Positions 1 to 54,863 of a DNA stretch of 64,000 nt are shown piece by piece. The notes below the pieces were generated by a model that was not told where the DNA came from, ran no database searches, and was given only the letters and a program-made list of their open reading frames with translations. Position 1 is the stretch's first letter. The number at the start of each line of letters is the position of its first letter. The translations under genes and the position numbers were made by a program. The stretch is from Thermoflexales bacterium. Lineage in GTDB: Bacteria > Chloroflexota > Anaerolineae > J036 > Brachytrichaceae. Where the stretch lies: the NCBI GenBank assembly GCA_019694215.1, contig JAIBCK010000002.1, positions 1 through 64,000 on the forward strand. Reading direction: 5' to 3'.

Positions 1-27
1 CTTCCGATAAGTAAACATTATCGGAAG
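1..27. promoter_or_regulatory. Perfect 10-bp inverted repeat (CTTCCGATAA / TTATCGGAAG) with a 7-nt AT-rich spacer, immediately upstream of ORF 45..452
   Basis: Palindrome read directly from the sequence. It is locally AT-rich in a 68% GC genome and sits 18 nt upstream of an ATG. Confidence 0.4.
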
Positions 28-44
28 TATAGCATCATTCGAGG

Positions 45-452
45 ATGCACAATAGGCCCATGGGCACAGAAACGATTTCCACCAAGCTTGCCGCGTATGG
101 CGAGCTCATGGCCGCACTCGACGTCATTCGGGCTGACCAGCAACGCGCCCGGGACTCGGTGCTGACGCCGGAGATTCGTGCGCGCCTGGCGGAGATCGAG
201 CTGGAGTTCGCGCCCCAGATCGACGCCGCTACGGCGCGCATCGACGCGCTGCTGGCCGAGATCAAGACTGAGGTGCTGACAGCCGGAGAGACCGCCCGCG
301 GTGGCGGCTACACGGCGGTTTGGTCACGCGGCCGCGCCAGCTGGAACGACAAGGCCCTCCTGAACTACGCTGTCGAACATCCGGAGATTCTGGGCTTCCG
401 GGCAACCGGCGATCCCACGGTCAGCTTGCGTAAGGCAAAGGCAAGCGACTGA
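45..452 (+). CDS. Hypothetical protein (coiled-coil-like N-terminus)
   Basis: Open frame with codon usage consistent with its neighbours. I recognise no family. Confidence 0.35.
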   Translation: MHNRPMGTETISTKLAAYGELMAALDVIRADQQRARDSVLTPEIRARLAEIELEFAPQIDAATARIDALLAEIKTEVLTAGETARGGGYTAVWSRGRASWNDKALLNYAVEHPEILGFRATGDPTVSLRKAKASD

Positions 453-635
453 CGCCTGCCTGGCCGCGGGACAGTCATGCGTCATCCGTCATGCGTTGGG
501 GGCGTCTGCAGGGCGGCGAGTCGTGCGCGGCCATGCAGAACAAATGTTCCACTATCTTCCTTCGTCCCTTCGTTCTTCTGTGAACCTATCGCTGTGAACC
601 TGCCGCTGTCTACGGTCGGCCGTCCGCCGTCAGCG

Positions 636-1169
636 ATGTCGCAGTATCATCCCCCAATGGCACACGAACTCGACAACTACAAAGCGATGCTGACCATGCT
701 CTTTGGTCAGGTGGATGAAACCCTCAAGGGCATTTCGCCCGCAGCGATGCTGTATGTCCCCTTTGTCGGCGATGCTGCGAGTGGAGAGACCGCGTCGGCG
801 GGCTGGTTCCTCGCCCATGGCGTCTCGTCAACGGTCTATCTGTTGCGCCTGGCGCAGTTTGCCGCGGGTCAGATCCCGTATGACGCGGTCAGCGGGGATC
901 AGGGTGAGGACGAATTCACACCCGCCAATCAGGACCCCGAGCGCATGCGTGAGCGCTCGCGCAACGCGCTGGCCACCTCGCTCGCGGTCATGGACGCCCT
1001 GGGGCATGCCAATCTCGACGGTGAGGTCCCCCACCCCACGCGCGCCGGCCGCACCCTGCGGGCACGCTATTGCATCACGCACGCCATCGACCACCTCAGC
1101 CAGCACATCGGCCACGCTCAGGTCACCCGCCAGATCGCCGAGCGCATGGGCGGCCGGCCTATCGCGTAA
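636..1169 (+). CDS. DinB/YfiT-like (DinB_2 superfamily) metal-dependent protein
   Basis: Size about 177 aa with His-rich C-terminal motif HAIDHLSQHIGHAQ. Start taken at the internal ATG at 636; the 477 start in the ORF track looks like an extension. Confidence 0.5.
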   Translation: MSQYHPPMAHELDNYKAMLTMLFGQVDETLKGISPAAMLYVPFVGDAASGETASAGWFLAHGVSSTVYLLRLAQFAAGQIPYDAVSGDQGEDEFTPANQDPERMRERSRNALATSLAVMDALGHANLDGEVPHPTRAGRTLRARYCITHAIDHLSQHIGHAQVTRQIAERMGGRPIA

Positions 1170-1204
1170 TGCGTCCTGCCGCGCTTTGACCCGGGAAAAC
1201 AGCG

Positions 1205-1238
1205 AGGGCCGCTCAACTGAGCGGCCCTCATCATTTCA
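1205..1238. terminator. Bidirectional intrinsic terminator between convergent genes
   Basis: 11-bp perfect stem GAGGGCCGCTC / GAGCGGCCCTC with loop AACT, followed by ATCATTTC. Confidence 0.6.
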
Positions 1239-1250
1239 AGCGCTTCCCGG

Positions 1251-1709
1251 CTATTTGCCCGAGACCGTCGGAAAGCCCTTCGATCGCCAGGACAGCAGGC
1301 CTCCCGCCATGCTCGTCACGCTGGGATAGCCCGACTTGAGCAGGATGTCGCGCGCCTGCCCGCTCCGGTTGCCGGAACGACAAACGATCACCACTTCCCT
1401 GTCACGCGGGATCTCCGCCAAACGCTGTTCGAGCTGACCGAGCGGGATGAGCTTCGTGTTGCTGACATGGAACTCCTCCCACTCCGATGGCTCGCGCACA
1501 TCCAACACGAAGGCACCCGTGGATTGCTTCTTCTGGGCCTCCTCCGGCGTGATCTCGCGGGGCAGCGGCGCAAGCGACATGGGGCCAGCCGCCACGGGCA
1601 CGGCCGGCACGGCCGTCGACGGCGCGCTGGCGCCACCGCAGCCACTCAGCAACAGCACCCCGCCAAGCGCGCCCGCAATGACGGCAGCCAGGGGTCGATT
1701 GGATTTCAT
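1251..1709 (-). CDS. Rhodanese-domain lipoprotein (sulfurtransferase-like)
   Basis: Signal peptide with lipobox LLSGC. Rhodanese active-site loop VIVCRSGNRS. Confidence 0.8.
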   Translation of the reverse strand: MKSNRPLAAVIAGALGGVLLLSGCGGASAPSTAVPAVPVAAGPMSLAPLPREITPEEAQKKQSTGAFVLDVREPSEWEEFHVSNTKLIPLGQLEQRLAEIPRDREVVIVCRSGNRSGQARDILLKSGYPSVTSMAGGLLSWRSKGFPTVSGK

Positions 1710-1749
1710 ATCCCTATCGTCTTCGCAAAGCGTCGAACGTTACACGCGC

Positions 1750-2691
1750 CTATGGCGCCTTTCCGCCGGCACCGCTGGCGATCAGCTGCGGCAGGATTCC
1801 CGCGTCGGTTGGCACCAGCGTGATCGCGCCCTTGCTTTCGAGCAGGCGCTGCACTTCGAGCGCCTCGAACAGCGTCTTCGCCACCTCGGGGTTCTCCGAG
1901 ATCTTCTGCAGCGTCGCGCCGACGATCTGCGGGCGCGTGGCCGCGGCCTTGCCGAACTCGATTGCCGCCTGACGTTCGGCGGTGCTGGTGATGATGTTGA
2001 CCTGGTTGATGCCGTTCTGGCGGATTGCCGCCGTGACCTGACGCAGGCGGTTCACGACCTTGGCCTCGATCCCGCGCTTCATGGCCTCGTCGCGGAACTG
2101 CACCTTGCGCACATACACACTGCCCAGGCGATAGCCCCAGTCGGCCGAGTGGGCCGTCACCTCGTTTCGCACGAGTTGGCTCATGCGATGGCGTTCCTCG
2201 AGCAGCTGTGCCAGTGGCATGTTGCTGAGCGTGCGCACCGAGGCGTTGCTCACGTTCGCTGCGAGCGAACCGCGCGGGTCGCTGTTCTTGAAGAGGAAGG
2301 CAACCGGGTCACTCACGAACATCTCGTACCACAGGCCAATGCCCATCGGCGCGCCCTCTTCGCTGTTGACCGCGCTATTGCGCAGATACTGCTGATCCAG
2401 GCGCAGGTCGACGACGCGCATGCTGCCGAGCCAGTTCACCACGAAGGCGGCCGGCCCAAGCTTGGCGGGGAGCAGGTGCAGGCCAGGTTCGTCGATCACC
2501 CCGATGACCTTGCCGAACAGGACATAGACAAAAGCGCGGCGCTCGGGGACGACGACATACAGCCCGAGGATGCGCATGATGCCCTTGGCAATCCCCCACC
2601 CCAGCGACATCACGACAAAAATCAAGATTGCGGTCGGGATGGCCGCAAGGAATCCGAACTGGCTGAACAGGCGTTCAAGGAGCTGGCTCAC
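1750..2691 (-). CDS. SPFH/band-7 (stomatin/HflC-like) membrane protein
   Basis: N-terminal TM followed by an SPFH domain. GTG start at 2691 preceded by GGAGGTGA. Its start overlaps the stop of the upstream SPFH gene (GTGA). Confidence 0.8.
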   Translation of the reverse strand: MSQLLERLFSQFGFLAAIPTAILIFVVMSLGWGIAKGIMRILGLYVVVPERRAFVYVLFGKVIGVIDEPGLHLLPAKLGPAAFVVNWLGSMRVVDLRLDQQYLRNSAVNSEEGAPMGIGLWYEMFVSDPVAFLFKNSDPRGSLAANVSNASVRTLSNMPLAQLLEERHRMSQLVRNEVTAHSADWGYRLGSVYVRKVQFRDEAMKRGIEAKVVNRLRQVTAAIRQNGINQVNIITSTAERQAAIEFGKAAATRPQIVGATLQKISENPEVAKTLFEALEVQRLLESKGAITLVPTDAGILPQLIASGAGGKAP

Positions 2692-3680
2692 GGCTTCACC
2701 TCCATCACGGCGCGCTGAGCGTTGGCGTACAGACCGAGCCGGACGTAACGCAGATAGCTGTCCAGCGCATCCGGACCGCTCTCCTTGAGCAGCGAGAGCT
2801 GCTTGGAGAGGGCCAGCAGCGGTTCAGTCTCCGCCTGGGCCTTGAGGGTTTCGATCTCAACGGCGCGCTTGGACTGTACGATCTTCTGATCGGCGCTGGC
2901 CTGGGCCACCGAAATATCTGAACTCACCTGGTTGTACGCGGTGTTGATCGCCGCGAGCGCGTTCTCGACTTCGTTGGGCGGGTCGATGGCGGTAATCAGC
3001 GAGGCATCCAGCACCACGCCGTAGCGCGCCGCTGAGGACGCGCATTCGCGATCCATGTGCTCGTTGATGTCGCGCAGGTTCTTGCGCAGGTCGTTGATCG
3101 AGATGCCCGCCGTCGTCGTGGCATCCACCGGCTGCGACGACTCGGAGGCCGGCCGTTCGGGTGCTTCGTAGTTGGCGATGCGCTCGCGCAGGATCGAGTG
3201 GAAGTAGCCCATGATATGCACGAGCGGGTTCTTGATGCCAAACAGAAAGGCATACAGGTTCGCCTCACTGACGCGGTAGCGGATCTGGCCGCGCAGTTCG
3301 GTGTTCAGCTGGTCCTTCGTCACGGCTTCGAGCACCTGTCCGCCCTGATTGAGCTGCGGATTCTCGGCGTCATAGGCCAGGCTGACGGTCTGGATGGCGA
3401 CCTGGATCTTGTAGACCTTCTCCCACGGCCACTTGATGTACGGGCCGCCGGGCGGGATCACCTGGACCTGCGGATAGATGTAGCGTTCCCGCTCCTCCGG
3501 CCGCAAAGCCTGCGAGATCGGGTTGTCCAGGGTGGTCAGTTTCCCGATGCGGAGGGCTTTTCCAAAACTTGTCTTCACCGCGCGCTCGTTCTGATTGACG
3601 GTGAAGAGGCTCGGCAGCATCGTGCGGATCACCCACAGGGCGATGCCGAGCAAGATGCCGACTGCAATGCCTGCTGACAT
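2688..3680 (-). CDS. SPFH/band-7 (HflK-like) membrane protein
   Basis: TM plus SPFH domain. ATG at 3680 is preceded by AGGAGG 7 nt upstream. The ORF-track start at 3722 is a likely extension. Confidence 0.8.
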   Translation of the reverse strand: MSAGIAVGILLGIALWVIRTMLPSLFTVNQNERAVKTSFGKALRIGKLTTLDNPISQALRPEERERYIYPQVQVIPPGGPYIKWPWEKVYKIQVAIQTVSLAYDAENPQLNQGGQVLEAVTKDQLNTELRGQIRYRVSEANLYAFLFGIKNPLVHIMGYFHSILRERIANYEAPERPASESSQPVDATTTAGISINDLRKNLRDINEHMDRECASSAARYGVVLDASLITAIDPPNEVENALAAINTAYNQVSSDISVAQASADQKIVQSKRAVEIETLKAQAETEPLLALSKQLSLLKESGPDALDSYLRYVRLGLYANAQRAVMEVKP

Positions 3681-3734
3681 ATCGTTCCTCCTCTTGATTT
3701 GCGCCACCGCCCACGCGGGCAACGGCGCGTCTCC

Positions 3735-4274
3735 CTACAATACACCAAGCTTCTTCGCAAGGCGCTGGACGGTGTTCATCCCGCGCAGGGTGCCCGGCGT
3801 GCCGATCGTGCGCTCGAGCACTGCGTTGCTAAAGCGCGAGTCGCTCTGTTTGACGGCGCACAACCAGTACACTTCGCGCCCAACGGCCATCAGCGCGTCG
3901 ATGTCGGAGTTCCGCGCCGCGAGCGCCTTTTGCTGCGCAGCTGTCAGCGTGTGCGCCACAAACGACACATTGAAGGCCCCCGCTGCCGCGATGGCCGCGG
4001 CTGGCCAGGGCGTGCACGTCGCGACCGCCGCGACCTCGGCCTCGCTGCGGACAAAGGTGGCCACGTCATAGCCAAGCCGCGCCTTCAGCCCGTCCGCGAT
4101 GCGGCCCTCGAGCGTCACCGGTGCCAGGCGGGATTGAAAGATCACGTTCCCGCTGGCGATGAAAGTCTCGACCTGCTCCAGCCCGAACGATTCGAAGTGT
4201 GCGGCGAGATCAGCCATGCTGACGAAGCGGCCGCCGACATTGATCGCCCGGAGAAAAGCGACGTAGCGCGGCAT
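3735..4274 (-). CDS. DUF1697 family protein
   Basis: N-terminal MPRYVAFLRAINVGG is typical of DUF1697. It lies 4 nt downstream of the amidohydrolase stop. Confidence 0.6.
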   Translation of the reverse strand: MPRYVAFLRAINVGGRFVSMADLAAHFESFGLEQVETFIASGNVIFQSRLAPVTLEGRIADGLKARLGYDVATFVRSEAEVAAVATCTPWPAAAIAAAGAFNVSFVAHTLTAAQQKALAARNSDIDALMAVGREVYWLCAVKQSDSRFSNAVLERTIGTPGTLRGMNTVQRLAKKLGVL

Positions 4275-4278
4275 GCGG

Positions 4279-5754
4279 CTAGCGCCCCACCCTTGGCACG
4301 GGCTCATGCCGCACCAGCGCGTGGCTGATCGCGTTGTGGCGCTCGATCACGCGCGGCAGGTCCACGGTTGTGAGATGGCCGCCCTCGATCACCACCCGTC
4401 CGTTGATCATGGAGAAGTCGACGCCGCGCGGCGCGCAGAACAGGATCGCTGCCAGCGGGTCATGCAGTGCGCCGGCGTACTCCACGCGGTTGAGATCGAT
4501 GGCGATCAGGTCGGCGGCAAAGCCAGGAGCCAGCTGCGCAATGTCCGACCGCCCCAGGACCGAGGCACCTCCCCGTGTGGCCAACCACAGAGACTCGTAG
4601 GCCGACAGCGCGCTTCGCTTGTGGCCGGCCGAGACGCTGTCATACATCGCGAAGGTCTCGTCCATCACGCGCTGAAGCAGCATGGCCTGGCGCGCTTCCA
4701 GCAGCATGTGGTTGCCATCGTTGCTGGCGCTGCCATCCACGCCCAGCCCAACCTTGACCCCGGCGTTGAGCATCAGGCGGATCGGCGCAATTCCCGAGGC
4801 CAGCCGCATGTTGCTGCTGGGGCAGTGCGCGACACCGCAGCCGCACGCGCCCATCCGGGTGAGGTCATCACCACGAAAGTGGACGCCGTGGGCATACCAC
4901 ACGTCTTCGCCCACCCACTCTACCGATTCGGCGTAGTCCAACGGACGCTTGCCAAACATGCCCAGGCAGAAGGCGTCCTCGTCGCGGGTCTCGGCGAGAT
5001 GGGTGTGCAGCATCACGCCCTTGGCGCGGGCCAGGCGCGCGCTCTCGCGCATCAGGTCGGACGTGACGGAAAACGGCGAGCACGGCGCAAGCGCCACGCG
5101 GGTCATGGCATAGCGTGAAGCATCGTGAAAGGTCTCGATCGCCCGCACGCTGTCCGTGAGGATCGCCCCCTCCTCCTCCGCCGCCCGATCCGGCGGCAGC
5201 CCGCCCTTGGACTCGCCCAGGCTCATCGAACCGCGCGTGGCGTGAAAGCGCAAGCCGATCGTCCGCGCGGCCTCGATCTCGTCGTCGATGCGGCAGTCGT
5301 TCGGATAGATATACAGGTGATCACTTGCCGTTGTGCAGCCGCTCAGCATCAGCTCGGCGATTCCGGTCAGCGCGCTGGTGTAGACGGCGTCACCGGTTAG
5401 GCCCAGCCAGATGGGATACAGCGTCTTGAGCCAGTTGAACAGCCCGTTGTCCTGCGCAATGCAACGCGTCAGGGTCTGATACAGGTGATGGTGGGTGTTG
5501 ACCAGCCCGGGCAGCACGATGTGCCCCTTCAGCCGATGGGTGGCCACAGGCGCACCAGCCCCCAGCGCCGCGATGGCCGCCGAAGCGGCACTGGCCTTCC
5601 CCACCCAGATGATCTCGGACCCGCGCACGAGCAGCGCGGCATCCCGCAAGGGGGCGGCCGGCTGCTCGCGGCTGCCGGTCATCGGGACGAGCGTGTCGAT
5701 GTCGGTGAGGAGGGTGAGGGGCGCGGCGGGGGTTTGGCGGGTCGCGGTTGACAT
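4279..5754 (-). CDS. 8-oxoguanine deaminase family amidohydrolase
   Basis: Strong similarity by recall to 8-oxoguanine deaminase: LVNTHHHLYQTL, WLKTLYPIW, ALAPCSPFSVT, HTHLAET, HCPSSNMRLASGI, GLGVDGSASND. Start taken at the internal Met (MSTATRQ). Confidence 0.85.
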   Translation of the reverse strand: MSTATRQTPAAPLTLLTDIDTLVPMTGSREQPAAPLRDAALLVRGSEIIWVGKASAASAAIAALGAGAPVATHRLKGHIVLPGLVNTHHHLYQTLTRCIAQDNGLFNWLKTLYPIWLGLTGDAVYTSALTGIAELMLSGCTTASDHLYIYPNDCRIDDEIEAARTIGLRFHATRGSMSLGESKGGLPPDRAAEEEGAILTDSVRAIETFHDASRYAMTRVALAPCSPFSVTSDLMRESARLARAKGVMLHTHLAETRDEDAFCLGMFGKRPLDYAESVEWVGEDVWYAHGVHFRGDDLTRMGACGCGVAHCPSSNMRLASGIAPIRLMLNAGVKVGLGVDGSASNDGNHMLLEARQAMLLQRVMDETFAMYDSVSAGHKRSALSAYESLWLATRGGASVLGRSDIAQLAPGFAADLIAIDLNRVEYAGALHDPLAAILFCAPRGVDFSMINGRVVIEGGHLTTVDLPRVIERHNAISHALVRHEPVPRVGR

Positions 5755-5776
5755 GTTTGCAATTATGACGGAAAAT

Positions 5777-5791
5777 CGGGTTCCTAACCCG
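5777..5791. promoter_or_regulatory. Inverted repeat CGGGTT-cct-AACCCG in the divergent intergenic region
   Basis: 6-bp arms with a 3-nt spacer, in the 72-bp spacer between divergent amidohydrolase and LLM oxidoreductase genes. Confidence 0.3.
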
Positions 5792-5826
5792 TGACGGTTC
5801 ACCCCATTCCCCTCAGCAACCAAATT

Positions 5827-6828
<1,002 letters not shown>

Positions 6829-6846
6829 ACGATAACCACAACCATC

Positions 6847-8052
<1,206 letters not shown>

Positions 8053-8106
8053 CGTATTCAGGCGCGCGCCGACATTCCGCGCGCAACAAAAGGAGTAACA
8101 ACCACC

Positions 8107-9087
8107 ATGCAAACCAACCTCCGGGGCCGGGACTTCATCGGCGATCTGGACTTCAGCCGGGAAGAGGTCGAGACCGTTCTCGACGTCGCCTGGGATCTCA
8201 AGCGCAAGCGCGCGCTGCACGAGCCGCACGCGCTGCTGCGCGACAAGGTCCTGGCGATGCTCTTCTTCTTCACCAGCACCCGCACCCGCGGTTCGTTCGA
8301 GGCCGGCATGGCGCAGCTCGGCGGACACGCCGCGTTCATCGATTCCGAGACCACGCAGATTTCGCACGGCGACACCGCCAAGGAAATCGGCGAGATCTTC
8401 GGGCGCTACTTCGATGGGATCGCCATCCGCCAGTGCGACTGGAAGTTTGGCAACCAGTACATCAACGACGTCGCCAAGGCCAGCCGCGTGCCGATCCTGA
8501 ACATGCAGTGCGACGTCTATCACCCCTTCCAGTGTCTGGCCGACCTGATGACCATCATGGAGAAGAAGGGGCGCAACCTCAAGCGCAAGAAGATGGTGGT
8601 GTCGTGGGCCTACGCCGCGTCCTACAGCAAGCCCATCTCGGTGCCGCAGTCGCTCGTCCTGCAAATGACCCGCTTCGACTGCGACGTCGTGCTGGCCCAT
8701 CCGCCGGAGTTCAAGCTGATGCCCGAGGTGATGGAGCAGGCCCGCGCCAACGCGAAGCGCTATGGCGTCGGCTTCGAAGTCACGGACAACATGGACGAGG
8801 CGTTCAAGGACGCCGACATCGTCTATCCGAAGTCGTGGGGCCCGCTGGTCACCGACACGAGCAAGGAGGGCGGCAAGGCCCTCATCGAGAAGTATCGCTC
8901 GTGGATCACCGATCAGCGCCGCATGAACCTCGCCAAGGATGACTGCATCTACATGCACTGTCTGCCCGCCGACCGCAACCTGGAAGTGACTGACGAGGTC
9001 ATCGACGGGCGGAATTCGGTGGTCTATGACGAGGCCGAGAATCGCCTGCACGCGCAGAAGGCCGTGATGGCCCTCACGATGTCCTAG
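8107..9087 (+). CDS. ygeW: YgeW-family knotted carbamoyltransferase
   Basis: STRTR carbamoyl-phosphate motif, plus YgeW-specific stretches WAYAASYSKPISVPQS, AFKDADIVYPKSW and YMHCLPAD. Confidence 0.9.
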   Translation: MQTNLRGRDFIGDLDFSREEVETVLDVAWDLKRKRALHEPHALLRDKVLAMLFFFTSTRTRGSFEAGMAQLGGHAAFIDSETTQISHGDTAKEIGEIFGRYFDGIAIRQCDWKFGNQYINDVAKASRVPILNMQCDVYHPFQCLADLMTIMEKKGRNLKRKKMVVSWAYAASYSKPISVPQSLVLQMTRFDCDVVLAHPPEFKLMPEVMEQARANAKRYGVGFEVTDNMDEAFKDADIVYPKSWGPLVTDTSKEGGKALIEKYRSWITDQRRMNLAKDDCIYMHCLPADRNLEVTDEVIDGRNSVVYDEAENRLHAQKAVMALTMS

Positions 9088-9095
9088 GACCTGTT

Positions 9096-9141
9096 GCGGG
9101 CGGGGGTTTGCCACGGCGAGCCCCCGCCCGTCTGTTGTGTG
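9096..9141 (+). terminator. Intrinsic terminator-like hairpin between ygeW and the carbamate kinase gene
   Basis: GCGGGCGGGGG ... CCCCCGCCCG stem (10-11 bp) followed by TCTGTTGTGTG. Confidence 0.5.
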
Positions 9142-9190
9142 AGGACGTGATTCGCTGACGCCCCCACCCCCTCAGACCGGAACACACTCC

Positions 9191-10150
9191 ATGACGAGCA
9201 CCCCCAAGCTGGCCGTTCTTGCGGTCGGCGGCAACGCCCTTATTCTCGATGAAAAGCACAAGACGGTGCAGGATCAGTACGCCGCCGTCGTCGAGTGCAT
9301 GGATCATGTCGTCGCGCTGATGCGCGATGGCTGGAACGTCGTCGTCACCCACGGCAATGGCCCGCAGGTCGGTTTCATCCTGCGGCGCTCGGAGCTCTCG
9401 CGCCACGAGCTGCACGAGGTGCCGCTCGACTCGTGCGGCGCGGACACGCAGGGCGCGATTGGCTATCTCTTTCAGAAGGCGCTGGTGAATGCCTTCAAGA
9501 AGGCAGGCATGGACCGCCAGGCCGTCACCGTCGTCACCCAGGTCGAGGTCGACGCCAATGACCCCGCCTTCAAGAAGCCCACCAAGCCCATCGGCTCGTT
9601 CATGCCTGAGGCCGATGCGCGCGTGAAGATGGAGAAAGAGGGTTGGACGATGGTCGAGGACGCCGGCCGTGGTTGGCGCCGCGTCGTTGCGTCCCCCCTG
9701 CCCAAGCGCATCGTCGAGCGCGATGCGATTCTGACCCTGATCGACCACGGCTTCACCGTCATCGCGGTCGGCGGCGGCGGCATCCCGGTCGTGCAGAACG
9801 CGGCAGGTGAGCTGAACGGCGTGGAGGCCGTCATCGACAAGGACTTTGGCGGCGCCCTGCTCGCGGCCAGCCTGCCGGTCGATCTCTTCATCATTGCGAC
9901 CGCGGTTGAGAAGGCGGCCATCAACTTCCGCAAGCCCAACGAACGCTGGTTGGATGTCATCACCGTCGATGAGGCGCGCAAGTTCCAAAGCGAAGGCCAC
10001 TTTGCTGCCGGAAGCATGGGCCCGAAGATCGAAGCCGCCATTTCGTTTGTCTCGCGCACGGGCAAGCCGGCCGTCATCACCAACCTCGAAAGCTTGAACC
10101 AGGCCGTGGCCGGCAAGAGCGGCACGCGCGTGGTGGCCAATCCCAAATGA
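9191..10150 (+). CDS. arcC: Carbamate kinase
   Basis: Amino-acid kinase family with carbamate-kinase motifs: VLAVGGNAL, VVTHGNGPQVG, IAVGGGGIPVV. Confidence 0.85.
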   Translation: MTSTPKLAVLAVGGNALILDEKHKTVQDQYAAVVECMDHVVALMRDGWNVVVTHGNGPQVGFILRRSELSRHELHEVPLDSCGADTQGAIGYLFQKALVNAFKKAGMDRQAVTVVTQVEVDANDPAFKKPTKPIGSFMPEADARVKMEKEGWTMVEDAGRGWRRVVASPLPKRIVERDAILTLIDHGFTVIAVGGGGIPVVQNAAGELNGVEAVIDKDFGGALLAASLPVDLFIIATAVEKAAINFRKPNERWLDVITVDEARKFQSEGHFAAGSMGPKIEAAISFVSRTGKPAVITNLESLNQAVAGKSGTRVVANPK

Positions 10151-11496
10151 CAGCACGTCCCCTTCACATCACAAACGCCACGTTGGTGACCTGGGGTGCC
10201 GAGCCGCGCCTCCTGTCCGACCATGCCCTGCGCGTGGTCGATGGCCGGATCGCGGAGATCGGCCCGGCCCGGGCGATGAAGGACGCCCACCCCGGGGACG
10301 AGGTCGTGGACGCGCGGGGGCAGCTCCTGATGCCTGGCAACATCTGCGCGCACACGCACTTCTACGGCGCGTTCGCGCGCGGCATGGCGATCCCCGGTGA
10401 CGCGCCCAAGGACTTCCCCGACATTCTGGTCCGGCTGTGGTGGAAACTGGACAGGGCCCTGTCGATGGATGATGTGCGCTCCAGCGCGGAGATCTTCATG
10501 GTCGATGCGATTCGGAATGGCACAACGACGTTGATCGACCACCACGCTTCGCCCAACGCTCTCGAGGGCTCGCTGGATGTCATCGCCGACGTCGTCGATC
10601 AGGCCGGCCTGCGCGCCTGTCTGTGCTACGAGGTGACGGACCGGGACGGCGAAGCGAAGATGCGGGCCGGCATCGCGGAGAACGTGCGCTTCTTGAAGCG
10701 CGCGCCTGGCCTGGCCGGTGGCCGTCTCGCCGCGGCCTTTGGCCTGCACGCCAGCCTGAGCCTGTCCGAAGCATCGCTGGAAGCCTGCCGCGCGGCCGCG
10801 CCAGCTGACACGGCCTTCCACGTCCACGTCGCCGAGCACGAGTCCGACGAGTACGACAGCCTCAAGCGCTCCGGTCTACGCGTCGTCGATCGGCTGCACA
10901 AGCATGGCCTGCTTGGCCGGCGCTCGATCGCTGCGCACTGCGTGCATGTCGACCTGGCCGAGGCCGCGCTCCTGAAGGAGACTGGCACAACGGTCACACA
11001 TCAGGCGCGCTCAAACATGAACAACGCCGTCGGCGCGGCCGACATCGAAGGCCTGAGCCGGCTTGGGGTGCGGGTGTGCCTCGGGACGGATGGCTTCTCG
11101 CACGCGATGTGGGATGAATGGAAGGCGGCCTATCTCCTCCACAAGGCCCAGCACCGCGACCCACGCCGCGCCAATGGCTCGCTCATCGCCCAGATGGGCG
11201 TCGCCAACAATGCCGCGTTGGCCGAACAGTTCTTCCCCGGCGCGCGCCTGGGCGAGCTGACCGTGGGCGGGCAGGCCGATCTGATCCTGGTCGACTACCA
11301 CGCCCCCACCCCGCTCAGCGCCGGCAACCTGCCGTGGCACATCCTGTTCGGGTTTGGTGCGCAGATGGTGACGATGACCATGGTGGCCGGGCGCATCCTG
11401 ATGCGCGACCGCCAGCTGGTCGGTCTCGACGAAGCCGCCATCGCCGCCCGCGCACGCGCGCTGGCGGCTCGCACCTGGGAGCGCTACTGGGGCTAG
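10147..11496 (+). CDS. ssnA: SsnA-like aminohydrolase (amidohydrolase superfamily)
   Basis: Similarity by recall to E. coli SsnA (MPGNICAHTHFY, LWWKLDRAL, LIDHHASPNA, ARSNMNN). Overlaps the arcC stop by 4 nt. Confidence 0.85.
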   Translation: MTARPLHITNATLVTWGAEPRLLSDHALRVVDGRIAEIGPARAMKDAHPGDEVVDARGQLLMPGNICAHTHFYGAFARGMAIPGDAPKDFPDILVRLWWKLDRALSMDDVRSSAEIFMVDAIRNGTTTLIDHHASPNALEGSLDVIADVVDQAGLRACLCYEVTDRDGEAKMRAGIAENVRFLKRAPGLAGGRLAAAFGLHASLSLSEASLEACRAAAPADTAFHVHVAEHESDEYDSLKRSGLRVVDRLHKHGLLGRRSIAAHCVHVDLAEAALLKETGTTVTHQARSNMNNAVGAADIEGLSRLGVRVCLGTDGFSHAMWDEWKAAYLLHKAQHRDPRRANGSLIAQMGVANNAALAEQFFPGARLGELTVGGQADLILVDYHAPTPLSAGNLPWHILFGFGAQMVTMTMVAGRILMRDRQLVGLDEAAIAARARALAARTWERYWG

Positions 11497-11520
11497 GGCG
11501 CGCCATTCACGGGTTTCGAG

Positions 11521-11558
11521 GCCTCCCCGCCCTTGTCGGCAGGGAGGCCCTTTCGTTT
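11521..11558 (+). terminator. Rho-independent terminator after the ssnA-like gene
   Basis: GCCTCCC ... GGGAGGC hairpin followed by CCTTTCGTTT. Confidence 0.6.
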
Positions 11559-11701
11559 ACATAACTGAATGAGACCGCCAATGAAGCGCCAATGCGCCGG
11601 ATATAGACTCCGCACGTTTGTCTCGTTGAACGACCTGCCCGAATGTCTCGGTCGTTCGTACGCCGGGACAGTGCCATCAATCTGACACGGTCCGGCAAGG
11701 A

Positions 11702-13708
11702 GTGACCATGTTCCCCCTGGATTTGCTGCTAGTGAACCCCTTCGTGCTGGGGCTGTTGATTCTGCTTGCGCTGGGGGTCGGATTCGTCCTGTTGGGGCTT
11801 CGAAGAATTCCCAACAACAAGGTGGGCATCGTGGAAAAGCGCTTCAGCGGTCGCGGAAGCGTCAAGTCCGGATTCATCGCGCTGAACGGTGAGGCCGGCT
11901 TCCAGCCCGCAGTCCTGCGCGGTGGATGGCACTTCCGAATGCCGTTCCAGTACGTCGTGCATACGGCGCCGCTGGTCACCATCCCGCAGGGCAAGATCGG
12001 CTATGTCTTCGCCCGTGATGGTGGCGTGCTGGATGCCACCCAGGCGCTGGCGTCGAACGCCTCAGCCAAGGACTTCACCGACGTGGTGGGCTTCCTGCGC
12101 AATGGCGGCCAGCGTGGCCCGCAGCGCCAGATCCTTCGCGAAGGCACCTATGCGATCAACCTGGCCCAGTTCGTGATCATCACGGAACAGCGCGTGCACT
12201 ACCTGCCGCTCAGCCGCGAGGAGCAGGCGATCATCGCCGGGATGGCCAAGGAGATCGCTGAGCGTGAGGGCTTCACGCCCGTCGTCATCCGCGACTCCGA
12301 CGACCTGGTCGGCATCGTGACCGTGCACGACGGCCCGTCCCTGCCCCAGGGCGAGATCATCGCCCCGACGGTGGGCGAGGACGCCAGCAAGCTCGAGACC
12401 TATCACAACAACTTCCAGGACGCCGACAAGTTCCTGGCGGCCGGCGGGCAACGCGGCCGGCAGCTACAGGTCATCGTGGAGGGCACGTACTACCTGAACC
12501 GCCTCTTCGCCACCGTAGAGACGGTGAGGAAGACCATCGTTGAGGTGGGCTCGGTCGGCGTGCTGGTGTTCTACACCGGCAGCGAGGGCAAAGACCTCAG
12601 CGGCACGGAGTACAAGCACGGCGAGATGGTCAAGCGCGGCGAGCGCGGCGTGTGGAACGAGCCCCTGCTGCCCGGCAAGTACGCGCTGAACACGTACGCG
12701 GCAAGGCTGATCAGTGTCCCGACGACGAACTTCATCCTCAAGTGGACGCGTGGCGACATCGGCTCGCATCGGCTGGACGAGAACCTGAGTGAGGTGAGCC
12801 TGATCACCAAGGATGCCTTCGAGCCGCAGCTGCCGCTCAGCGTGGTCGTGCACATCGACTACAAGAAGGCGCCGATGGTCATCCAGCGCTTCGGCGACGT
12901 CAAGCGGCTGGTGGAGCAGACGCTCGACCCGATGGTCGCGGCCTACTTCAAGAACGTGGGTCAGACGCGCACGCTGATCCAGCTGATCCAGGACCGCAGC
13001 CAGATCCAGCGCCAGGCCAGCGAGGAGATGAAGGAGAAGTTCGCCCGTTACAACCTCGAGCTCGAGGAAGTGCTGATCGGCACGCCATCCGCGCCCAAGG
13101 GTGACACGACGATCGAGACGATCCTCACCCAGCTCCGCCAGCGCCAGATCGCCAACGAGCAGGTCGAGACCTACGAGCGCCAGGAGAAGTCGGCCGTGCA
13201 GGAACGGGTGCTGCGCGAGGCGCAGGCCCGGGCCGCCCAGCAGACCAAGATCACGGAGAGCGAACTGAACATCATGGTCCAGGGCAACCAGGGTAAGGCT
13301 GACTATCAGCGCGCGGTGCAACAGGCTGCGCAGATCCGCACGCTGGCCGAGGCCGAGGCCGAGAAGGCCGCCCGCGTGGGTATTGGCCAGGCGTTGGCCA
13401 TCGAGGAGCAGGTGCGCGCGTATGGTGGGCCGCAGTTCCAGGTCACGCAGCTGGTGATGAACCGCTTCGCCGAGGCCATCGAAGCCGCCAAGGTCGACGT
13501 CGTGCCGCGCATCTCGATCAATGGCAGTGGCGCGAGCGGCGGCACGGGCGGCAGCCTGATGGAAGGCCTGCTGGCCATGCTGCTGAGCGAGCGCATGGGT
13601 CAGGTGCTCAACGTCAACGCGTCCGGCACCCGGTCGGCCGAGGCCGAAGCCCTGCGGCAGGACATCTTCGCCAAGCTTGCGAAGGGGCTCGAAGAGACCA
13701 AGGGCTAG
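11702..13708 (+). CDS. Flotillin-like SPFH-domain protein (YqiK/flotillin family)
   Basis: N-terminal TM, SPFH domain, and a long Glu/Ala/Gln-rich coiled-coil tail. 668 aa. Confidence 0.8.
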   Translation: MTMFPLDLLLVNPFVLGLLILLALGVGFVLLGLRRIPNNKVGIVEKRFSGRGSVKSGFIALNGEAGFQPAVLRGGWHFRMPFQYVVHTAPLVTIPQGKIGYVFARDGGVLDATQALASNASAKDFTDVVGFLRNGGQRGPQRQILREGTYAINLAQFVIITEQRVHYLPLSREEQAIIAGMAKEIAEREGFTPVVIRDSDDLVGIVTVHDGPSLPQGEIIAPTVGEDASKLETYHNNFQDADKFLAAGGQRGRQLQVIVEGTYYLNRLFATVETVRKTIVEVGSVGVLVFYTGSEGKDLSGTEYKHGEMVKRGERGVWNEPLLPGKYALNTYAARLISVPTTNFILKWTRGDIGSHRLDENLSEVSLITKDAFEPQLPLSVVVHIDYKKAPMVIQRFGDVKRLVEQTLDPMVAAYFKNVGQTRTLIQLIQDRSQIQRQASEEMKEKFARYNLELEEVLIGTPSAPKGDTTIETILTQLRQRQIANEQVETYERQEKSAVQERVLREAQARAAQQTKITESELNIMVQGNQGKADYQRAVQQAAQIRTLAEAEAEKAARVGIGQALAIEEQVRAYGGPQFQVTQLVMNRFAEAIEAAKVDVVPRISINGSGASGGTGGSLMEGLLAMLLSERMGQVLNVNASGTRSAEAEALRQDIFAKLAKGLEETKG

Positions 13709-22637: not shown

Positions 22638-23504
22638 TCACACGCCCCAGTCGCGCGGATACAGGAAATCGGCCCCGACGGTACGGGTACTGATCTTGGC
22701 GATGAGGGGATAGCGGCGCTTGAACTGGTTGCGCGCGACCATCCCCGCCACGCGCTTGACCAGCGCGGCGTCAAGGCCAAGGGCGATGGCCTCTTCTGGG
22801 CTGTAGCGCAGGTCGACGAGCACGCGCAGGATGCGATCGACGGCGTCGTAGGTCAGCCCCATCTCGCCTTCGTCGGTCTGACCCTCCCACAGGTCTGCGG
22901 AAGGGGCCTTGTCCAGGATCGGCTTCGGCACGTCCATCGCTGCCGCCAGCTGGCGGATCTGGGCTTTGTAGAGATCGCCCAACGGATTGAGTGCACATGC
23001 CTGGTCGCCGAAGAGCGTCGTGTAGCCGAGCATGAGCTCCGTCTTGTTTCCGGTGCCCACGACGAGGCCATTGAAGGCGGCGCTGCGATCAAAGAGCACG
23101 ACCATGCGGCAGCGCGCCATCGCATTTCCCGCTCGGAGCGGTGTGACCTGGCTGCTTTGGCCAAGCAAACTGTCGACCATCCCACTGATGTCGACGGTCT
23201 GGGCGCGCACGCCCAGCTGATCGATCACCAACTGCGCATGCGCAAGGCTGCCCGCTGATGATGTGCGATACGGCATGCGCACGGCAAGCACGTTCTCTGG
23301 GCCGAGCGCTTCCGCAGCGAGGAAACAGGACAGCGCCGAGTCGATGCCGCCCGAAAGCCCGAGAACGGCGCGAGACAGCCCGACCTTGCGGATCTCGTCG
23401 CGCAGAAAGCCGACCAGCATGCGACGCGCCAGGGCGACATCGAGGATGGGAAGGCCGGGTGAAATCGATTGGGACACCGCGCGCGATCTTACCTGATCCG
23501 TCAC
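22638..23504 (-). CDS. nadE: NH3-dependent NAD+ synthetase
   Basis: PP-loop GLSGGIDS and NadE-like architecture. 288 aa. Confidence 0.85.
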   Translation of the reverse strand: MTDQVRSRAVSQSISPGLPILDVALARRMLVGFLRDEIRKVGLSRAVLGLSGGIDSALSCFLAAEALGPENVLAVRMPYRTSSAGSLAHAQLVIDQLGVRAQTVDISGMVDSLLGQSSQVTPLRAGNAMARCRMVVLFDRSAAFNGLVVGTGNKTELMLGYTTLFGDQACALNPLGDLYKAQIRQLAAAMDVPKPILDKAPSADLWEGQTDEGEMGLTYDAVDRILRVLVDLRYSPEEAIALGLDAALVKRVAGMVARNQFKRRYPLIAKISTRTVGADFLYPRDWGV

Positions 23505-23580
23505 CTGCCGGTGCTGCGGTCATCTGTATCCCGATGCGAACCAGGTCCCGGACATTCACATCCGTTAGAGCGTCCGAGCC

Positions 23581-23586
23581 TATACT
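23581..23586 (+). promoter_or_regulatory. Candidate -10 hexamer TATACT 7 nt upstream of an ATG (possible leaderless transcript)
   Basis: TATACT ends 7 nt before the ATG at 23594. No SD is possible in that spacing. Confidence 0.35.
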
Positions 23587-23593
23587 CGCACGC

Positions 23594-24532
23594 ATGTTTC
23601 ACGACACAGAGATCATCGACTTTCACTCGCACTTTGGGCAGATCATGCCCGAGTGGCTCAAGAACCATGCTCCGCCCTATCACGCCCTCAGCGAGAAGCG
23701 GCAGCAGATCGCGCGCGGCTTCGCCATGCAGTACAACGCACAGTGGCGGGATGCCTGGGATATGCCGGTCCCGGAGCGCGGGCAGCAGACCCCGGAGGAG
23801 CTGGCGCACCGCTGGGCGCGCGAGCTGGACGAAAACGGCATCAGCAAGATCGTCTGGGTGACCGGCATGGGCAACGACACGCTGGGCAAGGTCTGCGCGA
23901 TGTATCCCGACAAATTCATCGGCATGGCGCATCATGACCCGTTTGCCCCGAACGCCGCCGACGAGATGGAGCGCTGCATCAAGACCTACGGGTTCCGCGC
24001 CTTCAAGACGATTGGTCCGTGGCTGAGCCGGCCGATCAATGACCCGGCGCTTTACCCGCTTTGGGAGGTGTGCGCGGCCTACGAGACGCCGGTGCTGATC
24101 CATTTTGGGATCCTGGGCAGCGGTGGCGGGATCGCCAACCACATCAACATGAATCCGATGATGATTCACGATGTGGCCAAGATGTTCCCGGATGTGACGT
24201 TTGTCGTCCCGCACTTCGGCTGTGGCTACATCACCGACACGCTGATGCTGTGCTGGGCGTGCGGCAATGTCTGCATCGACACCTCGGGGAGCAACCAGTG
24301 GGTGCGCTGGGTGCAGGGCCAGGAGACCACGCAGACGCTGTTCCGCAAGTATCTCGAGACCATCGGGCCGAGCCGCATCCTGTTTGGGACGGACTCGAGC
24401 TGGTTCCCGCGCGGTTTCTCGATGCGCTATCTGCAGGACCAGTGGCGCGACCTCGTGGACCTGAACGTGCCCCGCAGCACCCTCGAGGCGATCTTTGGGG
24501 GCAATGCGCGCCGCCTGCTCAAGCTTGGCTAG
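23594..24532 (+). CDS. Amidohydrolase_2 family (TIM-barrel metal-dependent hydrolase)
   Basis: N-terminal IIDFHSHF metal-binding motif and a C-terminal FGTD motif. 312 aa. Confidence 0.7.
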   Translation: MFHDTEIIDFHSHFGQIMPEWLKNHAPPYHALSEKRQQIARGFAMQYNAQWRDAWDMPVPERGQQTPEELAHRWARELDENGISKIVWVTGMGNDTLGKVCAMYPDKFIGMAHHDPFAPNAADEMERCIKTYGFRAFKTIGPWLSRPINDPALYPLWEVCAAYETPVLIHFGILGSGGGIANHINMNPMMIHDVAKMFPDVTFVVPHFGCGYITDTLMLCWACGNVCIDTSGSNQWVRWVQGQETTQTLFRKYLETIGPSRILFGTDSSWFPRGFSMRYLQDQWRDLVDLNVPRSTLEAIFGGNARRLLKLG

Positions 24533-24646
24533 CGCCAGACCACGGGCAGGGTTACAATCATTCGAGCCGTCGCGTTCGCGCGGCCCCGGGGAGAGGGGAC
24601 CATTGCGTTATGCGCAGCGTGAGCGCGGTTGCCAAAAGGAGCAAAT

Positions 24647-26008
24647 ATGAAATCCACGAAGCTTACATTTCTGGGCCTGGCAAGCGCGCTGATCCTCGCC
24701 GCCTGCACAGGCGGTGCGGCGGCGCCGACCGCCGCCCCCGTTGCCCCGGCAGCGACGACCGCAGCCGCCAAGCCGACCGAACCCGCGAAGCCCGCGCCTG
24801 CGGCCGGCGAGACCATCACGATCGAATACTGGCAGTACAACTTCCAGGTCCGCATCGACGCGATGAACGACCTCATCAAGCAGTTCGAGGCGGCCAACCC
24901 CGGGATCAAGGTCGTTCACAACAGTGAGATCCCGAATGCCGACTTCCAGACCAAGATTGCTGCGGCCGCGGCCGCGGGCGCTGGTCCCGATGTCGTGACG
25001 CTGTTCAATGGCTGGGTGCCTGCCTGGGTCGACGCGGGCTACGTCATCCCGCTGCCCGAGAAGGACTTCCCGCCGGCGGAGATCGAGAAGAACTTCACCT
25101 CGCTGGTGCAGGGGACGAAGTTCCAGGGCAAGTACTGGGCCATCCCGACCGCCGTGCGCTCGCTGGCTCTGTTCTGGAACAAGGACATGTTCAAGGCCGC
25201 CGGCCTCGATCCCGAGAAGCCACCTGCGACGCTGGACGAGTTTGTCGACTACGCCAAGAAGCTGACCAAGACCGAAGGCGGCAAGATCACCCAGCAGGGC
25301 TTTGCGGTCGAGATGAACGGCCAGGCCCACCAGTGGTTCCGCGAGGTGCTTACGCGGCAGTTCGGCGAGACCCCGTTCTCGGCCGACAACAAGACCATCA
25401 ACTACGGCAGCGCCAAGGCCTGCGAGGCCTTCACGTGGCTGACCAAGTTCGAGACCGACTACAAGACCGGCAGCAATGACCTGTTCGACGGCGCCACGAC
25501 GGCGTTTACGAATGGCAAGCTGGCCATGCACATCGATGGCTCGTTCCGCCTCGGCGCGCTGAACTCGGCCAAGGGCCTGAACTTCGGCGTGGCCGTGCTG
25601 CCGACGCGCAACGACATCAAGTCGAACTTCGGCTCGTTCTGGACGCACGGCATCACCAAGAAGGCCGCCGCGGACCCGAAGAAGCTCGAAGCCTCGATCA
25701 AGTTCCTGAAGTTCATCACCACGCCAGCCGCTGGCACGCTGTGGGTGAAGTACACGGGCGAGCTGCCCGCGCAGCTGTCCGCCGCCGCCGACCCCGCGCT
25801 GGCCGCCGACCCGAAGCTGGGCGCGTTCGCCAAGCAGATGCCGTACAGCATCGCGACCTTCTTCGTCGACGAGGCCAAGCAGCGCCAGGCGCTGATCGAT
25901 GCCTTTGACGCCGTCCGCCTCAACAAGGTGGATCCGTGCAAGGCCCTCGCAGACGCCGCCAAGAAGGACCAGGCGCTCTACGACGACTTCTGGGCGAAGC
26001 ACAAGTAA
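24647..26008 (+). CDS. Sugar ABC transporter substrate-binding lipoprotein (SBP family 1)
   Basis: Lipobox LAAC, Ala/Pro-rich linker, and SBP_bac_1-like features. AAGGAG RBS upstream. Confidence 0.85.
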   Translation: MKSTKLTFLGLASALILAACTGGAAAPTAAPVAPAATTAAAKPTEPAKPAPAAGETITIEYWQYNFQVRIDAMNDLIKQFEAANPGIKVVHNSEIPNADFQTKIAAAAAAGAGPDVVTLFNGWVPAWVDAGYVIPLPEKDFPPAEIEKNFTSLVQGTKFQGKYWAIPTAVRSLALFWNKDMFKAAGLDPEKPPATLDEFVDYAKKLTKTEGGKITQQGFAVEMNGQAHQWFREVLTRQFGETPFSADNKTINYGSAKACEAFTWLTKFETDYKTGSNDLFDGATTAFTNGKLAMHIDGSFRLGALNSAKGLNFGVAVLPTRNDIKSNFGSFWTHGITKKAAADPKKLEASIKFLKFITTPAAGTLWVKYTGELPAQLSAAADPALAADPKLGAFAKQMPYSIATFFVDEAKQRQALIDAFDAVRLNKVDPCKALADAAKKDQALYDDFWAKHK

Positions 26009-26079
26009 CTGACTTTCGTCCGTTGGCCGGCAGGGTGGTGCAATACTCCGCCCTGCCGGTTTCATTCCCCGCAAACGCC

Positions 26080-26982: not shown

Positions 26983-26983
26983 G

Positions 26984-27829: not shown

Positions 27830-27833
27830 CCAC

Positions 27834-31332: not shown

Positions 31333-31420
31333 GCGAAGCAGTGTAGCACAAATGTTCGATTCTGTGAATGGTGCGGATTTTGGGCCACCGGCTTCGCTGC
31401 TCGCGTGGTTTAATGACCGG

Positions 31421-45527: not shown

Positions 45528-45532
45528 TGCCC

Positions 45533-47386: not shown

Positions 47387-47416
47387 TGCCCGACTGTAGC
47401 ACGGGCGGCGTGACCG

Positions 47417-54789: not shown

Positions 54790-54863
54790 CAAGTCCAATG
54801 ACACAGTGTCGTGATTATAGAAGCGGCAGCCCACGTGACCGATGCGCGCTTTACAATGGCTGG

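Follow-up and report, generated by a model that had tools for sequence, protein, structure and literature searches.

By what route might a bacterium of the Chloroflexota break down urate and related purines when its gene cluster encodes only part of the enzyme set known from Escherichia coli? This question is raised by a cluster of seven genes (positions 3735-11496) in a stretch of 64,000 nucleotides (64 kb) from a Thermoflexales bacterium (assembly GCA_019694215.1, contig JAIBCK010000002.1), which we refer to as the window. Reconstitution of the E. coli urate pathway was reported in 2025 (PMC12507026). In its first step, urate is reduced to 2,8-dioxopurine by XdhD-YgfM. YgfK reduces the ring of 2,8-dioxopurine, SsnA opens this ring, and HyuA opens the second ring to give 2,3-diureidopropionate. 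YgeW then phosphorolyses one ureido group, YgeY hydrolyses the other, and YgeX turns diaminopropionate into pyruvate. YgeW and the carbamate kinase YqeA form ATP from 2,3-diureidopropionate (bioRxiv 10.1101/2025.04.24.650524). We consider it likely that this reductive urate/2,8-dioxopurine degradation pathway is present in the window in a partial Chloroflexota (Thermoflexales) form. We read the cluster as a partial module because a molybdenum (Mo) hydroxylase and a pyridoxal phosphate (PLP) enzyme adjoin the same core genes in the related loci L010, L087, and L039. The most interesting aspects of the locus are its link to the cofactor F420 and its missing hydantoinase, rather than the gene set as such.

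Layout of the cluster and its relatives

Open reading frames (ORFs) were chosen by their third-position GC signature in a window with a GC content of about 65%, and their starts were refined. Seven intact genes, all with a high third-position GC (GC3) coding signature, lie within the cluster, and five of them are on the plus strand. These encode a luciferase-like oxidoreductase (LLM; 5827-6828; PF00296, 214 bits); a YgeY-family M20 hydrolase of 401 amino acids (aa) (6847-8052; TIGR03526, 469.6 bits versus a cut-off of 321.5, and NF009555, 432.3 versus 321); a carbamoyltransferase of 326 aa (8107-9087), which its YgeW-type motifs and a neighbor-joining tree mark as a putative short-form YgeW-like enzyme; a carbamate kinase of 319 aa (9191-10150; NF009007, 392.3 versus 266, and TIGR00746, 371.4 versus 358.25); and an SsnA-family amidohydrolase of 449 aa (10147-11496; NF005540, 489.1 versus 444, and TIGR03314, 475.4 versus 455.5). 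The gaps from LLM to ygeY, to the carbamoyltransferase gene, and to the carbamate kinase gene are 18, 54, and 103 bp, respectively, and the carbamate kinase gene and ssnA overlap by 4 nt at the stop codon of the former. Because the gaps are this tight and the last two genes overlap, the five genes appear to form one operon. The initial annotation of the window had described four contiguous hallmark genes of anaerobic urate catabolism; YgeY, carbamate kinase, and SsnA pass curated cut-offs as such, while the fourth, YgeW, fails both of its models. The LLM gene had also been placed divergent from the YgeY operon. It is instead on the same strand, 18 bp upstream of ygeY, and is the first gene of that operon, being divergent only from a deaminase-DUF1697 pair.

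This pair is encoded on the minus strand. The deaminase, an amidohydrolase of the 8-oxoguanine deaminase family (491 aa; 4279-5754; NF006055, 613 bits versus 532), matches a solved 8-oxoguanine deaminase over its full length (7ww2, 517 bits; 498 bits to 3hpa), which bears out the family named for it at the outset. Its orthologues, at 58% identity, adjoin adenine deaminase in L001 to L003, and the enzyme is a probable feeder of the pathway that would convert 8-oxoguanine or guanine to urate or xanthine. The DUF1697 gene (3735-4274; PF08002, 112 bits versus a cut-off of 24.4) follows the stop codon of the deaminase gene after 4 nt and is coupled to that gene, as had been claimed. Its protein has about 179 aa when counted from an internal ATG; the ORF reaches 4307, the Pfam domain begins at ORF residue 12, and no NCBIfam model matches.

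The pair and the operon are separated by a divergent spacer of 72 bp (5755-5826) with a sigma-70-like match inside (TTGACA-17-GAAAAT, 5748-5776, plus strand), which is the sole such match in 3400-12000. Because this match precedes LLM in the spacer, we take LLM to be the first gene of the operon. The total of promoter matches in the same interval is not above shuffled expectation, so the candidate promoter is suggestive, with only its position speaking for it. Two copies of the octamer ATTATGAC, a possible operator, lie within the spacer or at its boundary (5762-5769 and 5824-5831); the divergent spacer of L007 holds a similar ATTATGAT. No regulator gene adjoins the cluster in the window, and relatives carry GntR.

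To place the cluster among its relatives, the proteins of the window, of E. coli, and of related loci were mapped onto 80 ssnA loci from species-representative genomes. All 80 of the ssnA relatives retrieved are from Chloroflexota, like the window itself, in agreement with the non-enterobacterial host that had been proposed, and the LLM is 100% identical to a protein from a Thermoflexales metagenome-assembled genome. Three loci, L007, L010, and L087, have the window's exact order LLM-YgeY-carbamoyltransferase-carbamate kinase-SsnA, with proteins that are 55-89% identical to those of the window. Because the identical order is found on these three contigs, the gene grouping is not due to chance, and because the order is kept at such protein identity, the five-gene arrangement appears to be old and maintained. 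L007 has all seven window genes, on a contig of only 7.8 kb. In L087, the five-gene core lies inside a cluster that also encodes a YgfM-like FAD subunit, a 977-aa Fe-S/Mo protein, a Bmp-type ABC transporter, a PLP enzyme, XdhC, and an adenine deaminase. The core of L010 is likewise within a larger cluster and has a fused Fe-S/Mo hydroxylase and a PLP enzyme beside it. In L039, the gene for a 915-aa fused Fe-S/Mo protein overlaps the start of ssnA, and fno and then LLM come next; this arrangement is the counterpart of ygfK-ssnA-ygfM-xdhD in E. coli. The fused Mo protein of L086 passes the model for Se-dependent xanthine dehydrogenase (875 versus 830) and faces LLM-YgeY. L001 to L003, from Anaerolineales, have a separate module that consists of the deaminase homologue, adenine deaminase, GntR, YgeY, the carbamoyltransferase, carbamate kinase, a Bmp transporter, and a PLP enzyme. 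The same three loci have two genes that the window lacks: one for a weakly His_Phos_1-like protein of 173-176 aa, between ygeY and the carbamoyltransferase gene, and one for a protein of 660-671 aa, after the carbamate kinase gene, that matches no Pfam or NCBIfam model.

The initial annotation had called for a comparison of gene neighborhoods. This comparison ties the LLM to the core and does not do the same for the deaminase-DUF1697 pair, which is found elsewhere only in L007 (55% identity); the deaminase is missing from L010, L039, and L087. Since the modules are separate or more complete in the compared relatives, the window reads as two conserved purine modules fused into one, with loss of the transporter, hydroxylase, and F420 genes. 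One might regard the cluster instead as a recent, possibly nonfunctional juxtaposition of an ssnA...LLM module with a deaminase/YgeY/transferase/kinase module, without joint regulation, and the occurrence of these modules at separate loci in most relatives (L001 to L003 versus L014 to L084) would fit such an origin. However, no ORF is broken, each has the high GC3 signature, the gaps are tight with a 4-nt overlap, and the order recurs in L007, L010, and L087 despite the divergence of their proteins from those of the window. We therefore regard a recent juxtaposition of this kind as very improbable.

The luciferase-like oxidoreductase and F420

The partial-pathway reading assigns the LLM to the step at which YgfK acts in E. 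coli. The top 16 NCBIfam matches of this protein are all F420-dependent LLM classes or enzymes, each scoring below its own cut-off (Mer, 166 versus 276; TIGR03555, 163 versus 349), and LLM models of the flavin mononucleotide (FMN) type score far lower. The nearest solved structures are those of two F420-dependent enzymes, Mer (126 bits) and F420-dependent glucose-6-phosphate dehydrogenase (FGD; about 50 bits). Gene linkage in the relatives points in the same direction. LLM orthologues, at 72-87% identity, are present in 45 of the 49 ssnA loci that have at least 6.5 kb of downstream sequence. Within the full set of 80 Chloroflexota loci, fno adjoins ssnA in 72, cofE is present in 65, and the complete order ssnA-fno-cofE-fbiB (C-domain nitroreductase)-cofD-cofC-LLM is found in 47. 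Pfam and NCBIfam both confirm the F420 genes of L022 (11428-16569), where npdG/fno scores 213 against a cut-off of 150 with TIGR01915. The F420 block nested between ssnA and LLM is also seen in, for example, L016, L027, and L084.

Because the LLM is linked to ssnA, fno, and cof genes in the relatives, we have strong linkage evidence that it would use F420 and work with SsnA. The LLM is probably a Mer-like, F420H2-dependent enzyme, and we propose that it is a 2,8-dioxopurine reductase that replaces YgfK or its counterpart UacX. The suggestion that the LLM substitutes for the reductive step had been made from the window alone, and the ssnA-fno-cof-LLM linkage in relatives supports it. In those Chloroflexota that have the nested block, F420 synthesis also looks tied to purine breakdown, because the F420 genes lie between ssnA and LLM in more than half of the loci.

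This substitution has a precedent in print. The 2025 study noted, as a bioinformatic suggestion, an 'F420-dependent' PF00296 protein in Chloroflexota that lack YgfK and UacX (PMC12507026); its supplement gives no further detail on the Chloroflexota variant, and the Dodd preprint does not mention it. Within the library searched, PMC12507026 is the sole paper that links F420 with SsnA, and a 2021 review of F420 (PMC8498797) makes no mention of purines. No F420-dependent purine reductase has been characterized so far. The cluster had been announced as a variant pathway not yet described, and this holds in part: the variant is uncharacterized, while the pathway itself was solved in 2025 and the exchange of the reductase for an LLM is already in print (PMC12507026).

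The carbamoyltransferase and the missing steps

The carbamoyltransferase is the gene product for which family membership is least straightforward. It fails both YgeW models (NF005538, 212.9 versus 453; TIGR03316, 202.2 versus 500), and it is also under the cut-offs for ornithine carbamoyltransferase (OTC; 264 versus 306 and 255.5 versus 280.85) and acetylornithine carbamoyltransferase (AOTC; 250 versus 288). Its best solved match is the OTC of Pyrococcus furiosus (219 bits), followed by E. coli YgeW (3q98, 184 bits) and an Enterococcus faecalis homologue (2yfk, 181 bits). With 326 aa versus the 396 aa of YgeW, the protein is without eight YgeW segments that total 66 aa and does not have the full-length YgeW architecture of about 396 aa with specific insertions and a C-terminal extension. 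The second-substrate domain tells a different story. The blocks that this domain of the window's enzyme shares with both 3q98 and 2yfk are KKxxxSWAYxxSYxKPxSVPQ, FKDADIVYPKSW, YMHCLPAD, QCDxxHPxQ, and GNxY, and the motifs SWAYAASYSKPISVPQS, YPKSWGP, HCLPAD, QCDVYHPFQ, and GNQY of the window's enzyme are present in both of these proteins and not in P. furiosus OTC. The OTC motifs GDGNNV and DxxxSMG are absent from the window's enzyme. Residues 141-250 show 52-53% identity to YgeW versus 28-46% to OTC, while the last 36 residues show 74% identity to OTC and 28% to YgeW.

Relatives of the enzyme were collected by a phmmer search of 1.84 billion cluster representatives, and 87 full-length 50%-cluster representatives were placed in a neighbor-joining tree, a distance tree without support values. 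In this tree, the five-member clade of the window is sister to a clade that contains E. coli YgeW and long YgeW representatives; AOTC-like sequences come next, and true OTCs lie outside. More than 100 relatives at 87-95% identity come from Anaerolineales, Thermoflexales, and other Chloroflexota. Because the motif table and the tree agree on a sister position to YgeW, we class the protein, from its sequence, as a short-form YgeW-like enzyme, encoded in a YgeW-like context, that is not a member by the curated models. We propose that it releases carbamoyl phosphate by phosphorolysis of one ureido group in 2,3-diureidopropionate, and the carbamate kinase would use this carbamoyl phosphate to form ATP from ADP. 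The initial annotation had foreseen an ATP-yielding pair of transferase and kinase; the intermediate, which it had left undefined, can be named, since the substrate of YgeW is 2,3-diureidopropionate. L010 has a second carbamoyltransferase gene (2556-3509) between ygeY and the short YgeW-like gene. Its product scores 255 against a cut-off of 237 with the aspartate carbamoyltransferase model and could be either PyrB, encoded inside a purine cluster, or a second ureido-cleaving enzyme.

Identities to the E. coli counterparts are 40.5% for YgeY, 49.7% for carbamate kinase (YqeA), and 35% for SsnA. By analogy with E. coli, we propose that SsnA opens the ring of the reduced dioxopurine and that YgeY hydrolyses the remaining ureido group to give 2,3-diaminopropionate. 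Between the carbamoyltransferase and carbamate kinase genes, directly after the carbamoyltransferase stop codon, lies a GC-rich 16-bp hairpin on the plus strand (9096-9131; minimum free energy, -36.3 kcal/mol; z = -4.05). Hairpins that are divergent in sequence, with z values of -4 to -6, occupy the same spacer in L007, L010, L001, L002, and L003. The hairpin is probably an intercistronic stabilizer or attenuator that sets the expression ratio of transferase to kinase.

Several functions that the pathway requires in E. coli have no counterpart in the window. A tblastn search of all 64 kb with E. coli YgeX, HyuA, YgfK, XdhD, YgfM, and XdhABC gave no match at E < 1e-10, in line with the absence of YgeX, HyuA, YgfK, XdhD, and YgfM that had been reported for it, and queries with HyuA-like and PLP enzymes of Chloroflexota gave no match there either. 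Among the relatives, only L085, from Caldilineaceae, has a HyuA homologue (39% identity to HyuA; TIGR02033, 546 versus 393). Its homologues in Anaerolineales, at 65-67% identity, are in a different cluster; we considered them as candidates to fill the hydantoinase gap and rejected them, since their neighbors are xanthine dehydrogenase (XDH) subunits, an amidase, AllF/AllG/AllH, a cyclase, and an aminotransferase. In L089 and L090 (Anaerolineales), an uncharacterized cluster (about 1-12800) consists of XDH FAD, Fe-S, and Mo subunits, an amidase, AllF/AllG/AllH of the oxamate carbamoyltransferase type, a cyclase, a dihydropyrimidinase, and an aminotransferase, and it is probably another route of N-heterocycle catabolism. 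PLP enzymes are linked to the core in L002 (19122-20390), L010 (15436-16713), L085 (11087-12362), and L087 (8568-9947). They score 179-192 bits against a cut-off of 167 with TIGR00260 or are weakly CysK-like, and they reach only 54-70 against the 276 of the YgeX model. Because the linked PLP enzymes are not YgeX, the final pathway step may use different chemistry in Chloroflexota.

The points that weigh against a partial urate pathway can thus be gathered. The window contains no Mo hydroxylase, hydantoinase, or PLP lyase, and searches of its 64 kb with Fno and CofC/D/E queries found no fno or F420 biosynthesis gene. The LLM reaches the cut-off of no curated F420 family, and the carbamoyltransferase is below both YgeW cut-offs. 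Among the relatives, L007, L010, L039, and L087 have no hydantoinase gene within 10 kb of their cores, and the PLP enzymes are threonine-synthase-like or CysK-like rather than YgeX.

These gaps invite the view that the seven genes are a self-sufficient, shortened pathway without Mo hydroxylase, hydantoinase, and YgeX. The LLM would then reduce the deaminase product directly, and SsnA, perhaps with the deaminase-family enzyme or YgeY, would open both rings. None of the three missing functions is encoded within the 64 kb, the four relatives just named have no hydantoinase close to their cores, and L007 carries the identical seven-gene set. The L007 contig, however, is just 7.8 kb long, and a fused Fe-S/Mo hydroxylase lies beside the same LLM/YgeY or LLM/SsnA genes in L010, L039, L086, and L087. 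The deaminase, for its part, is closely homologous to an 8-oxoguanine deaminase of solved structure and is not a constant partner, being missing from L010, L039, and L087; on these two grounds we reject it as a substitute for the hydantoinase. The idea that two amidohydrolases replace the hydantoinase was part of the initial annotation and finds no support, since one is an SsnA that passes its cut-offs and has a step of its own and the other is the deaminase homologue. In E. coli, moreover, SsnA alone does not yield a doubly opened product (PMC12507026). L010, L087, and L039, which add a Mo hydroxylase and a PLP enzyme, speak against the self-sufficiency that had also been suggested for the cluster, and we consider it quite unlikely. 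We give no better a chance to the related idea of a shortened fermentation of purines or other N-heterocycles, in which an F420H2-dependent LLM and SsnA act on the deaminase product without a hydantoinase. In such a fermentation, one of the enzymes present or spontaneous chemistry could open the second ring, and the pathway could be mechanistically distinct from that of E. coli. What speaks for this idea is that no hydantoinase lies within 10 kb of the LLM-YgeY-carbamoyltransferase-carbamate kinase-SsnA clusters that we examined.

The same gaps would also be explained if the cluster served a different N-heterocycle, such as a single ring of the isocytosine or uracil type or a pterin. Deamination and F420H2-dependent reduction of the ring would be followed by a single opening by SsnA and by removal of the carbamoyl group by transferase/kinase and YgeY. 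A single ring needs no hydantoinase, Mo hydroxylase, or YgeX, so this route fits the gene content. Isocytosine is reported to be accepted by enzymes of the 8-oxoguanine deaminase family, which would suit a single-ring substrate. The substrate of the LLM's nearest solved relatives is a pterin, methylene-tetrahydromethanopterin, and SsnA has just 35% identity to its E. coli counterpart. Yet SsnA and YgeY pass equivalog-level cut-offs, and the carbamoyltransferase retains the motifs of the YgeW second-substrate domain. Relatives with the same core also carry adenine deaminase, Bmp-type nucleoside/purine ABC transporters, XDH-family enzymes, and XdhC. We judge a different substrate to be unlikely.

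The preferred reading, a partial version of the reductive urate pathway, leads to the following model. The deaminase would convert 8-oxoguanine (or guanine) to urate (or xanthine), a role for which the family is clear and the substrate is predicted. A fused Fe-S/Mo hydroxylase, of the Se-dependent xanthine dehydrogenase or 2,8-dioxopurine dehydrogenase type found in relatives, would be encoded elsewhere and would interconvert urate and 2,8-dioxopurine. The Mer-like LLM would then reduce 2,8-dioxopurine with F420H2, in the role of YgfK/UacX, as gene linkage indicates and as has been suggested in print. SsnA, whose family is clear and whose chemistry is taken from E. coli, would open the first ring. 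The second ring would be opened to 2,3-diureidopropionate by an enzyme that is presumably encoded elsewhere in the genome. From homology and context, the short YgeW-like carbamoyltransferase would phosphorolyse one ureido group, with the carbamate kinase making ATP, and YgeY would hydrolyse the other to give diaminopropionate, again with the chemistry known from E. coli. A PLP enzyme encoded elsewhere would complete the pathway.

The remainder of the window adds little to this model. Pfam scans of the remaining ORFs found unrelated genes apart from an orphan gene of the XdhC/CoxI family (molybdenum cofactor insertion; 54022-54834, minus strand), which lies 42 kb from the cluster, between genes for a major facilitator superfamily transporter and an iron-containing alcohol dehydrogenase, and which hints at an XDH-family enzyme elsewhere in the genome. 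Neither Rfam, at its gathering thresholds, nor a tRNA scan found a hit in the window, and this includes purine and 8-oxoguanine riboswitches. Three SPFH/Band7 genes flank the cluster on both sides (1750-3722, minus strand, and 11702-13708, plus strand). The one after ssnA, which encodes 668 aa, occupies the same place in the Thermoflexales contig L006 (84% identity), and these flanks appear to be lineage synteny with no evident link to purines. We asked whether the 668-aa protein is the 660-671-aa protein that follows carbamate kinase in L001 to L003 and rejected this, as the two have no similarity. Twelve kilobases downstream, 23258-29234 (plus strand) encodes an Amidohydro_2 protein, a sugar-type ABC transporter (SBP_bac_8 and two permeases), and an argininosuccinate-lyase-like protein and is a putative separate catabolic operon. 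A tyrosine recombinase gene of the phage integrase family is at 30448-31887 (minus strand). The region 44000-48000 has 70% GC and a strong AT skew (0.13-0.29) and includes an ORF of 617 aa (45533-47386) without a Pfam match.

Comparison with known systems

Should the LLM prove to be a 2,8-dioxopurine reductase that depends on F420H2, purine catabolism would have its first F420 enzyme, and F420 would gain a concrete physiological role in Anaerolineae, bacteria that abound in the environment and in wastewater. The urate pathway solved for gut bacteria in 2025 would then reach environmental anaerobes, and the locus would offer two parts for engineered uricolytic strains: a TIM-barrel reductase that tolerates oxygen and a YgeW of compact size. 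The hydantoinase gap and the PLP enzymes that are not YgeX mark the places where the chemistry may differ from that of E. coli.

The likeness to the E. coli cluster lies in the homologues of SsnA, YgeY, and YqeA and in the carbamoyltransferase related to YgeW (37-40% identity). The transferase and kinase genes are adjacent in the window, as in most gut clusters, and a purine deaminase is encoded near the cluster, like guaD in E. coli. Unlike the E. coli cluster, the window is without XdhD/YgfM, YgfK, HyuA, and YgeX; it has an LLM, Mer-like and probably F420-dependent, where YgfK would act; its carbamoyltransferase has 70 aa fewer and scores under the YgeW cut-offs; its deaminase is of the 8-oxoguanine type and not GuaD; and its host is a GC-rich environmental member of the Chloroflexota rather than a gut bacterium. 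The LLM has the Bac_luciferase TIM-barrel fold in common with Mer and FGD, whereas its gene context is purine catabolism and not C1 or sugar metabolism.

A variant of the pathway is already known from Clostridioides difficile, in which UacX stands in for YgfK and UacY for YgeW and carbamate kinase (PMC12507026). This variant shows that the steps of ring reduction and ureido cleavage can be exchanged as modules while SsnA stays constant. The window differs in that it retains the ATP-yielding phosphorolytic branch and in that its reductase is a TIM-barrel LLM instead of a PydA-like FMN enzyme. The window is a case of the Chloroflexota variant noted in PMC12507026: it combines SsnA with a PF00296 protein and lacks YgfK and UacX. 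Beyond that description, our analyses add the missing hydantoinase and the non-YgeX PLP enzymes, the fused order LLM-YgeY-carbamoyltransferase-carbamate kinase-SsnA with its short form of YgeW, and the position of fno and cofCDE/fbiB(C), which most relatives have nested between ssnA and LLM.

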